Below are positions 3,093-14,401 of a stretch of DNA of 19,265 nt, one piece after another. The DNA lies in assembly GCF_006345805.1 (NCBI RefSeq), contig NW_021824274.1, positions 1 to 19,265 of the forward strand, written 5' to 3'. The notes below the pieces were generated by a model, which saw only the letters and a list, made by a program, of their open reading frames with translations, was not told the DNA's origin and did not search any database. The position numbers and the translations under genes are program-made. The DNA is from Octopus sinensis. Lineage: Eukaryota. Every line of letters begins with the position of its first letter. Within the stretch, counting starts at the first letter, position 1.

Positions 3093-3102
3093 TAGATAGG
3101 TC

Positions 3103-3138
<36 letters not shown>
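3093..3138. repeat. (GATA)n flanking LINE copy 1
   Basis: Direct observation. Confidence 0.95.
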
Positions 3139-4221
3139 TGTTTCTTTATTAGCCACACAGGGCTGCACACAGATAGAACAATTACAAGGTAGAGCTTTTC
3201 TTTTGAAGGTTTAAAAAAAAAAGGGGGAGTTTCGATCAAAAGGGATCGTAAAAGGAGAGAAAGAGGACAGAAGAAAGGGGGGGTTAAAAAAAAAAAAAAA
3301 AAGGGGAGAGGAAAAAAAAAAAAAATTGATCAAATAGGGATCGTTATCACAAAATGTCAATATGAAGTGTAAAGGGGAGGACAGGTGAGTTTACCCGTGG
3401 AAAGAAAAGCCTACGGAAAAGACCACGGTAACCTCGGTCAATGAAGTCACATTTTATATTTCTTTTTTTTTTTTTTTTTTTTTGCAAATAAGCAACTCTC
3501 TGTTTCGATTTCTGGGTTCATAGGACTATGCTCAAGGTGGCTTCGTCATTCATACGTGCCATTCTTGCTACATTCACACCATCTTTTTTAAAACATTCGC
3601 TAGAGACAAACTTGCCTCTCTACTCTCACTTTCCTTTTCAAGTGGTACTTGAAGAAGTTGATGAGAGATTGACCAGAGAGGAAAGTGTTTGTCTCCAATC
3701 CTTTCAGACGCGTCCACCAGATACATTCTTTTCGCCATAGCCACAAGAAGGATGATGAAAATAGCTCTTCCTTCCCGTTTGAAGGAAGGAGGCGTGACAA
3801 TATTGACGATAGACTCAGCTGAAAACCCGACTCGTCCCACACGTGACAGCAGTTGTTCGACATAAGCCCACAAGTCGGAAATTGTTGGACACTGAACGAG
3901 TGCGTGCAGAACGTTTCGTCGCTCTCACTGCATCTCGGGCAGGTCGGCCCGTGTTTCTCGAGCCGTGTCCTGTAGAGCTTATCCCGAACGGGTAGCGCTT
4001 CTCGGTAGCACTGCCAGGCCAGGGATCTCTGGAAGTTGTCCATGGGCCCTGGCCCGAAAGTCGTCCCGAACAGGCGGGTCAGGTACTCCTCGTCGACGTC
4101 CAGGTTCGCCCCGAGCTCGTCGTCGTACCTCCCCTCCACTAAACCCCTATAGAATGCTTGGTTGTGTTGAAGTCACTTAAGGTCGACCCAGGACGGCAGA
4201 GTTGCTTGAGAGCAACGCGAC
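3139..4221 (-). mobile_element. 5'-truncated L1/Tx1-like non-LTR retrotransposon, copy 1 (ORF2 C-terminus + 3' UTR), inserted in (GATA)n
   Basis: Frameshifted minus-strand ORF pieces read AWQCYREALPVRDKL...CPRC...ET..H...WAYVEQLL...KECIWWTR. The stop codon is at 3518-3520 (ATLSIVL*). A T-rich 3' UTR ends AATAAAGAAACA directly against TATC repeats. The segment is GC-rich against the background and near-identical in its coding part to 4294-5451. Confidence 0.88.
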
Positions 4222-4293
4222 GATAGATAAGATAGATAGATAGATAGATAGATAGATGATAGATAGATAGATAGATAGATTAGATAGATAGAT
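4222..4293. repeat. (GATA)n between the two LINE copies
   Basis: Direct observation. Confidence 0.95.
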
Positions 4294-5451
4294 CAGTTCT
4301 TTATTTGGCCCACAGGGCTGCACACATATGGGACAAGTTACAAGGTTTAGCTTTTCTTTTGGGATGAAAACACAAAAAAGGGGGGGCGTAGGTTTTCGAT
4401 CAAGGGAGGGATCGTAAAAGGGAAAAAAGAACAAAAATAATAAAATAAATAAATAAAATAAAAAATTAAAAAATAAAAATAAATAAAAGAAAAGGAAAGG
4501 AACAAAGAAAAAGAAAATGACAAAAGAAGAAAAAAGGGAAAAAAGGGGGAAGAGGAAAAAAAAAACGATCAATAGGGATCGTGTATCACAGTGTTATGAT
4601 ATATGGTGTAAAGGGGAAAGCAAGTAAGGTTTATCCGTGGGAAGAAAAGCCTACGAAAAAGACCACGGTAACCTTGGTCAATATTTGTTTGCAAGTGAGT
4701 AACCCTCTGTTTTCAATTTCTGGGTTCATAGGATTATGCTCAAGGTGGCTTCGTCATTCATACGTGCCATCCTTGCTACATTCACCCATCTTTTTTTTAA
4801 ACATTCGCTAGACAAAACTTGCCTCTCTACTCTCACTTTCCTTTTCAAGTGTACTTGAAGAAGTTGATGAGAGATTGACCAGAGAGGAAAGTGTTTGTTC
4901 TCCAATCCTTTCAGCGCGCGTCCACCAGATCATTCTTTCGCCATAGCCACAAGATGATGAAAATAGCTCTTCCTTCCCGTTTGAAAGAAGGCGGCGTGAC
5001 AATATTGACGATAGACTCAGCTGATAAACCGACTCGTCCCACACGTGACAGCAGTTGTTCGACATAAGCCCACAGGCCGGAAATTTTTGGACACTGCACG
5101 AGTGCGTGCAGAACGGTTTCGTCGCTCCGACCGCATCTCGGGCAGGTCGGCCCCGTGTTTCTCGAGCCGTGTCTGTAGAGCTTATCCCGAACGGGTAGCG
5201 CTTCTCGGTAGCACTGCCAGGCCAGGGATCTCTGGAAGTTGTCCATGGGCCCTGGCCCGAAAGTCGTCCGGAATAGGCGGGTCAGGTACTCCTCGTCGAC
5301 GTCCAGGTTCGCCCCGAGCTCGTCGTCGTACCTCCCCTCCACTAATCCCCTATAGAATGCTTTGGTTGTTATGAAGTCACTCAAGGTCGACCCAGGACGG
5401 CAGAGTTGCTTGAGAGCAACGCGACACTCGCGGTGCCATTCGCCCTTCCTC
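4294..5451 (-). mobile_element. 5'-truncated L1/Tx1-like non-LTR retrotransposon, copy 2, inserted in (GATA)n
   Basis: ORF 4911-5561 contains CPRCGRSDETVLHALVQC (CX2CX8HX4C, zf-RVT type) preceded by W..YREALPV..L. The stop is at 4726-4728 (ATLSIIL*) after frameshifts. The 3' end AATAAAGAACTG abuts ATCT repeats. TAGA arrays lie on both sides. Confidence 0.9.
4726..5451 (-). pseudogene. LINE ORF2 C-terminal fragment (zf-RVT CCHC domain), frameshifted
   Basis: Reconstructed from ORF 4911-5561 plus downstream frames. The N-terminal YLSI repeats of the listed ORF are only the (TATC)n flank. Confidence 0.85.
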
Positions 5452-5455
5452 AGAT

Positions 5456-5512
<57 letters not shown>

Positions 5513-5528
5513 GATAGATAGATAGATA
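5452..5528. repeat. (GATA)n flanking LINE copy 2
   Basis: Direct observation. Confidence 0.95.
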
Positions 5529-12411: not shown

Positions 12412-12694
12412 ATTTATGCGACCCTTCTCAAGCCTAGCCAGGCTCATGGGCCCGGTTTCCCGGTTTCTGTGGCGTATGTGTTCCCCCCAGCTAGTCCATC
12501 ACAGCGTAACTCAAGAAACAGGAAGAAAGAGTAAGAGAAAGTTGGGGCGAAAGAGTACAACAGGGGTCGCCCCACCTCCTGCCGGAGACTCGTGGAGCTT
12601 TAGGTGTTTTCGCTCAATAAACACACACAACGCCCGGTCTGGGAATCGAAACCGCGAGTCCGTTACCCTAACCACTGGGCCATTGCGCCTCCAC
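12412..12694 (-). mobile_element. tRNA-derived SINE
   Basis: The minus strand begins GTGGAGGCGCAA-TGGCCCAGTGG (A box, 12672-12682)...GGTTTCGATTCCC (B box, 12641-12653), followed by a GC-rich body and a short A-rich (ATAA) tail. Confidence 0.85.
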
Positions 12695-12737
<43 letters not shown>

Positions 12738-13894: not shown

Positions 13895-13945
<51 letters not shown>

Positions 13946-14178
13946 GTGTGAATGTGTGTGTATATGTTTGTGTGTCTGTGTTTATTCCCCCAACATCGCT
14001 TGACAACCGATGGTGGTGTGTTTACGTCCCCGTAACTTAGCAGTTAGGCAAAAGAGACTGATAGAATAAGTACTAGGCTTACAAAGAATAAGTCCTGGGT
14101 CGATTTTCTCCACTATAGGCGGTGCTCCAGCATGGCCACAGTCAAATGACTGAAACAAGTAAAAGATTAAAGAGTAAA
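13745..14178 (+). mobile_element. tRNA-derived SINE (CORE-like) with internal (TA)/(TG)n microsatellite; B box absent
   Basis: A-box-like TGGCTGTGTGGT at the 5' end and a CORE-like GTGGCACCTTGATCAAGTGTCTT segment. Internal microsatellite at ~13887-13980. The 3' part (13981-14178) matches the reverse complement of 219-420 (GGTGCTCCAGCATGGC, TGACTGAAACAAG). The tail is A-rich. Confidence 0.85.
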
Positions 14179-14401
14179 GAGAGAGAGAGAGGGAGAGAGT
14201 GTGTGTGTGTGTGTGGTGTGTGTGGTGTGTGTGTGTGTTGTGTGAGAGAGAGAGTGTGTGTGTGTGCGTAGTCTTCTGTATCGTAGGGCTGTGAGTAAAG
14301 TTGGTAGATAGCAAGTGTAAAATGCGTCAATAAGTCTGTCTGTGTGTATGTATGTTGTATATATCTACTTATGTATTGTATATGTAAGTTATGCATGTAT
14401 G

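Follow-up and report, generated by a model that had tools for sequence, protein, structure and literature searches.

Microsatellites are the insertion sites of several Tx1-type LINEs: Kibi of fish uses (TC)n, Koshi (TTC)n, and families of crocodilians use (TTCC)n/(TTTC)n (PMC4494074; PMC3812793). The LINE family described here, found in GATA repeats of Octopus sinensis, resembles Kibi, Koshi and the crocodilian elements as an APE-type non-LTR retrotransposon that prefers a microsatellite, and the crocodilian targets likewise consist of 4-nt units. Unlike those targets, which are pure pyrimidine repeats, that of the present family is (TATC)n, and its host is a cephalopod. When the targets of the Kibi/Koshi lineage were compared, none of (TC)n, (TTC)n, (TTCC)n or (TTTC)n was matched. 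Further microsatellite-specific non-LTR elements are Waldo on (ACAY)n, Mino on (AC)n and Dong on (TAA)n (PMC3812793), and Togen on (TG)n (PMC4640811). They share this specificity with the octopus family and differ from it in their clades (R1, R4, NeSL-related) and in the repeats chosen. R1 and R4 are among the clades to which Waldo, Mino and Dong belong, and SART1Bm and R1Bm are members of the R1 clade. Both SART1Bm and R1Bm are repeat-targeting APE LINEs for which RNA resembling the target has been proposed to pair with the nicked strand; their targets are telomeric or rDNA, and insertions of SART1Bm carry a poly(A) tail (PMC7265360), a feature absent from the GATA family. According to a review of 2013, little is understood of how such elements choose microsatellites (PMC3812793).

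The window, a stretch of 19,265 nucleotides, is one entire contig of a 2.72-Gb microsatellite-rich genome. It contains two LINE copies on the minus strand, copy A (3139-4221, 1083 nt) and copy B (4294-5451, 1158 nt). The 3' flank of copy A is a (GATA)n array (3093-3138; 11.5 units in TRF) that reads TATC from the junction in the element sense. The 3' UTR of copy A (3139-3517, minus) belongs to the subfamily with the terminus ...TAATAAAGAAACA; a poly(A) tail is absent, and an AATAAA signal (3145-3150, minus) lies 6 nt before the element end. The C-terminal part of its ORF2 (3518-4221, minus) is 5'-truncated, its frame is interrupted by small indels, and it reaches 97.6% against other genomic copies. 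A second (GATA)n array (4222-4293; 17.8 units in TRF) serves as the 5' flank of A and the 3' flank of B. Copy B continues with a 3' UTR of a second subfamily (4294-4725, minus; terminus of genomic copies ...CAATAAAGAAACT), which carries AATAAA at 4300-4305 (minus), and with the C-terminal part of ORF2 including a zf-RVT zinc domain (4726-5451, minus). The zinc domain was recognised by Pfam with an E-value of 7.1e-8 (matched in one of the three frames tested). Compared with a full-length copy of 6052 nt, copy B lacks the 5' part up to about position 4955, and its 5' flank is a third (GATA)n array (5452-5528; in TRF 5456-5528, 18.8 units).

From these letters, the original prediction had read two copies of the same orientation with GATA repeats at all four LINE/repeat junctions, 3' UTRs more diverged than the coding parts and unequal 5' ends. 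All of this was confirmed. Both copies lie on the minus strand, and the four junctions contact an array in which the sense strand of the element reads TATC. In the alignment of A with B, 55 of 341 UTR positions are substituted (16%) with 17 gaps, as against 22 of 694 coding positions (3.2%) with 13 gaps, and B reaches 26 nt farther 5' than A. By itself, the window offers a single 5' flank, that of B, which is not readable as a tail. Since the central array is shared by A and B, the claim of a specific target was tested on genome-wide counts. Elsewhere in the window, at a distance of 430 nt from the array with the two copies, there is a 313-nt GATA/GACA array without an element (2349-2661). At about 235-390, 12600-12695, 13940-14020 and 14170-14326 lie short interspersed repeats, SINE-like by eye, which were met again in many other loci.

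The 25-nt 3'-terminal motif of the family had 6,744 exact matches in the genome and the intact 28-nt 3' end had 6,383; as exact-match counts, both figures are minimum estimates of family size and favour younger copies. TATC followed directly after 5,700 of the 6,383 intact ends (89%), TAT with another base after 339 and TA with another base after 89, so that TA came next in 6,128 cases (96%). The longer string TATCTAT was present after 5,115 ends. Among the 683 ends without TATC next to them, 428 still began with TA, which means that about 7% of sites are off-target yet start with TA. The register is also fixed: an 8-nt run adjoined the 3' junction in 67 copies, and in 65 of them it started with TATC. 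The family thus comprises thousands of copies, mostly in one orientation inside GATA repeats. Perfect five-unit TATC runs have 72,599 starts in the genome, about one per 37 kb, evenly divided between the strands (36,153 vs 36,446). Of the first 100 such starts on contig C1 (75,000-4,016,000), 78 were on the plus strand, where neighbouring runs are not independent.

For the 5' flanks, the first 100 matches by position (of 6,744) were used, which cover the first 37 Mb of contig C1. The 5' ends were mapped against natural copies; 93 were resolved and seven ran into N or off the locus. A flank was scored automatically as TATC when an 8-nt run in the TATC frame lay within 30 nt of the element end. 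Most of the resolved copies (89/93) are 5'-truncated, with a median length of 459 nt. TATC runs were present on both sides in 66 of 93 copies, on the 5' side only in 5, on the 3' side only in 12 and on neither in 10. The 22 resolved 5' flanks without a run by the automatic rule count against targeting; three of these calls (L060, L087, L126) were boundary errors, in which TATC was visible on inspection. No target-site duplication was found on inspection of the 3'-only copies L057, L103 and L104. In a separate set of full-length copies, defined by an exact 5'-end motif (82 taken of 124 matches), TATC was found upstream of 80 of 82 copies and continued the 3' end in 62 of the 72 copies with a located 3' end. 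A general lack of GATA repeats on the 5' side had been named beforehand as the finding that would speak against a target; TATC was found there in 71 of 93 resolved copies (76%), 67 of 89 truncated copies and the 80 of 82 full-length ones. With 89% of 3' flanks and 76% of resolved 5' flanks in TATC and a fixed orientation, the site-specific (TATC)n family proposed by the original prediction is borne out. It also lies above the share of >20% of flanks of one type that has been applied as the criterion of target preference in Tx1 elements (PMC4494074).

Copies that inserted at random and were then passively retained in neutral regions rich in microsatellites could be considered in a genome so rich in repeats, with its 72,599 five-unit run starts, and Waldo-A/B are described to accumulate passively near CA repeats (PMC3812793). 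The probability of this explanation is practically negligible here. In windows of the same loci at least 500 nt from any copy, a TATC run was present in 60 of 17,998 (0.3%), while without this margin the figure was 520 of 22,770. The GATA orientation was never seen, neither in 100 3' flanks nor in 93 5' flanks. Retention is contradicted because both orientation and register are fixed.

A second explanation takes (TATC)n as a 3' tail made by the element which expanded after insertion, the 5' arrays being tails of neighbouring copies or products of slippage. The 12 copies with TATC on the 3' side only would agree with it, arrays expand easily, and copies often stand in tandem. It is nonetheless improbable, as the truncated copies with a 5' TATC run have scattered breakpoints and most of them do not follow a neighbouring copy according to the flanks inspected. 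Inside imperfect arrays, duplications of 13-17 nt are legible (L076, L116, L120, L126, L182, L198). Further evidence came from 60 loci chosen for the lack of TATC after the 3' end, of which 46 were resolved. No TATC run was present on either side of 23 of these 46 copies. In fourteen of the 23, a direct repeat with a minimum length of 8 nt begins at TA (three being simple repeats and one doubtful); the remaining nine gave no repeat of this length. Tail-less copies adjoin the duplication directly: outside arrays, the target is joined without any addition, with a duplication starting at TA, in L029, L075, L068, L081, L327, L336 and L373. Clean examples are L029, L075 and L014, the latter with a 5' inversion and a 17-nt target-site duplication. 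Such a 5' inversion fits the twin priming of L1. A genome-wide search for a poly(A) tail within 30 nt of the 3' end gave four matches, three of which were the internal A-run of a following copy, and no convincing junction of element, (TATC)k and poly(A) was found in the genome-wide search. No empty allele was seen in the genome holding the window. The repeat is therefore considered as the target and not as an obligate tail, because copies off arrays join their target directly, often with its duplication and without poly(A). Overall, target-site duplications measure about 6-18 nt. The same TA register was also observed at other arrays, namely (TACC)n (L019, L331, L339, L341), (TA)n, (TTA)n and (TATG)n.

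The 3' ends of the subfamilies co-vary. Among 100 sampled copies, 54 had T...ACA, 37 had C...ACT and 9 had other ends. A third subfamily, about 80% identical, gave 192 matches; TATC was present at all 30 of the 3' flanks examined and at both of the two resolved 5' ends. Head-to-tail stacking is usual, as 22 of 100 copies have a neighbour within 5 kb, compared to a mean of 2.7 and a maximum of 17 in 2,000 random trials. All 13 neighbouring pairs lie on one strand, 6 of the 13 mix subfamilies, and locus L035 harbours four copies of three subfamilies. As a separate observation, L108, L133, L107, L172 and L173 have ORF2 in common and differ in their ends: the 5' UTRs are 67-71% alike, there are two types of 3' UTR, and the N-terminal and middle parts of ORF1 are exchanged, as if modules had been swapped around a shared ORF2.

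The pair in the window could itself have arisen by tandem duplication on the spot or as an artefact of assembly, since its contig is short and copies A and B contain many one-base indels. Pairs with identical breakpoints, resembling duplications, also occur elsewhere (L017/L018, L121, L132); these are short tandem copies which likely arose by slippage or unequal exchange between flanking arrays. For the window pair, such an origin is very improbable. As originally argued, A and B do not form a simple tandem duplication: their subfamily ends and breakpoints differ, and their 3' UTRs, with a divergence of 16%, match distant copies better (94% and 87%) than each other (84%). Moreover, the right-hand flank of the pair is single-copy in the genome, and pairs of mixed subfamilies are common. 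Eight sequencing runs contained half or more of the words of the flank, with no RNA run among those listed. An assembly artefact is set aside here on arguments from sequence only. The tail-only, passive-retention and duplication readings were all rejected on the evidence of flanks, orientation, register and subfamilies.

Full-length copies are mostly 5.9-6.3 kb long (about 6.2 kb). ORF1 encodes about 710 aa (712 aa in L173) with low complexity at both ends. A weak CCHC knuckle (zf-CCHC, residues 425-441, E 0.01) remained below the Pfam cut-off, and neither Transposase_22 nor RRM was matched in the Pfam search of ORF1. As a lead only, residues 215-460 resemble CCHC and ZCCHC3-RBD RNA-binding clusters (0.90-0.92). 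ORF2 has 1145 aa in L183 and contains Exo_endo_phos (5.9e-15), RVT_1 (4.3e-31) and zf-RVT (1.9e-7). The same layout of two ORFs and APE-RT-zinc was found in subfamily C. Prediction of the endonuclease structure from the single sequence was unusable (pLDDT 33). ORF2 was uninterrupted in 3 of 72 full-length copies, one of which also has an uninterrupted ORF1; many of the breaks are one-base indels and may be assembly errors. Over 2.6 kb of ORF2, 27 of 36 copies differ from L183 by 1.1-2.8% and nine by 4.5-6.1%. Because of this low divergence, activity was considered fairly recent.

From its two ORFs, the APE-RT-zinc organisation of ORF2 and an RT nearer to LINE-1 than to R2, the family is assigned to the L1 group (L1/Tx1). 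Its best solved relative is the LINE-1 ORF2p with 188 bits, as against at most 76 bits for R2. With human LINE-1 it shares the order of APE and RT, aligned catalytic APE motifs, a similar duplication length, 5' truncation and the 5' inversion (L014). Target-site duplications and variable 5' truncation are marks of TPRT in the L1 group. In contrast, the traits of mammalian-type L1, a poly(A) tail, a Transposase_22 ORF1 and a T-rich target, are absent: human LINE-1 has the first two and targets TTAAAA, while the target of the GATA family is TATC. The Tx1 clade is characterised by a type I ORF1 (RRM and CCHC knuckle) without Transposase_22, and an ORF1 of this type in non-mammalian animals has been described as consistent with Tx1 (PMC5203782). 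Among named proteins, one of Argonauta hians comes closest, with 68% identity in the RT region, which points to an octopus-like host; it is followed by a group at about 50% RT identity and by proteins of turtle, amphioxus and sea cucumber at 35-41%. The group at about 50%, a sister group (P0086, P0104, P0105, P0090), is encoded on long ENA contigs, and its clusters comprise 98-732 members. The turtle protein P0135, which is 33% identical to the ORF2 of the family over 660 aa, is likely of Tx1 type, since its best match among isolated endonuclease structures is the chimera 2v0r, which has a Tx1L loop (PMC1950540). Look-ups of relatives in protein clusters gave no Tx1-labelled names, and a metagenome scan for relatives returned only distant elements (25-42%), with no GATA/TATC arrays among 80 loci. 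Membership in the Tx1 clade is rated as likely, because the quick RT tree (33 rows) has no labelled Tx1/L1 reference and its basal forks are open.

Taken together, copies A and B very probably go back to two independent insertion events, each 5'-truncated and each by a different subfamily of one L1-group LINE (likely Tx1), which enters (TATC)n in one orientation and register, likely by means of its ORF2 endonuclease nicking the GATA strand and priming there. The proposed steps follow the standard TPRT model. The pattern of insertion, the anatomy of ORF1 and of the APE-RT-zinc ORF2, the duplications of about 6-18 nt, the truncation and the lack of poly(A) are features of the copies themselves, whereas recognition of the target by the element's own endonuclease is likely. 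The bottom strand would be nicked at 5'-GATA^GATA-3', with TA as the minimal requirement, and the freed GATA-3'OH would prime cDNA synthesis at the fixed 3' end of the element. A staggered second nick about 6-18 nt away would then give rise to the target-site duplication. Cleavage of an RNA usually takes place 10-30 nt downstream of AATAAA. Since this signal lies only 6 nt before the element end, cleavage of the RNA would probably fall within the array that follows, and a few UAUC units, instead of poly(A), might pair with the primer, although this step is the weaker one. Copy L110, the only one with four extra TATC units (16 nt) between its 3' end and the duplication, fits such a read-through model. 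Each insertion would leave an intact target on both sides, so that later copies could stack head-to-tail as in the window.

Alternatively, targeting could be real and set mainly by pairing between RNA and primer, with a relaxed endonuclease nicking at TA and only those nicks that can pair with UAUC being extended efficiently. This is possible, though less probable than the first reading. The 428 of 683 non-TATC ends that still begin with TA, the many off-target sites in (TA)n, (TTA)n and (TACC)n, the lack of a poly(A) tail and the extra units of L110 before its duplication all agree with it, and the target-like pairing proposed for SART1Bm and R1Bm (PMC7265360) offers a precedent. On the other hand, 3' ends are precise even in off-target copies that share only TA with the target, and in related APE elements the choice of target is attributed mainly to the endonuclease (PMC4494074; PMC3812793). 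Endonuclease and pairing could each explain the TA/TATC bias and may act together; the genomic data do not separate them.

Beyond choosing the arrays, the element could also spread them, if its RNA starts and ends within the donor array and full-length insertions thereby seed new targets, a feedback that would have helped to build the roughly 72,600 runs. This idea is rather doubtful. At a site without array, L107 has 20 TATC-like nt between the duplication and the 5' end; L182 has 17, and L400 perhaps 7. The extra nucleotides of L107 and L182 suggest transcription from within the upstream array, and at the 3' end the 16 nt of TATC in L110 would be in line with seeding. Against it, the extra 5' nucleotides number 0 in L418, 1 in L392 and 3 in L198, and the full-length copy L396, whose site is not TATC, lacks TATC on both sides. 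From these four copies, 5' carry-over of TATC is therefore occasional at most. The first bases of full-length 5' ends (L138-L167) were seen to form a 4-nt repeat of GGAC/AGAC units, often preceded by TCTCT, and the head of the element therefore continues the period of the target array.

The original prediction knew of no described (GATA)n target. No GATA- or TATC-targeting LINE was found among the titles and abstracts searched or in the papers cited here, and a note on one could well exist in Repbase Reports. In Octopus vulgaris, 13 recently active L1-Tx1 families with 421 insertions were reported, and the available text of that source gives no target preference for them (PMC13282606). They are of the same class and likely of the same host group, and the GATA family may already be among them. 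That the family is a (TATC)n-specific LINE is well supported; the kind of element is known, its target new. Among the few APE retrotransposons specific for microsatellites, it adds (GATA)n as a target and a cephalopod as a host. With more than 6,000 copies, about 7% of TA-starting off-target sites, three subfamilies and open frames, it makes the question of endonuclease versus priming testable. As about 5,100 3' ends lie on TATCTAT, compared to 72,599 run starts, a visible part of the GATA loci is shaped by the family, which matters for the design of microsatellite markers and for repeat annotation in the host group.
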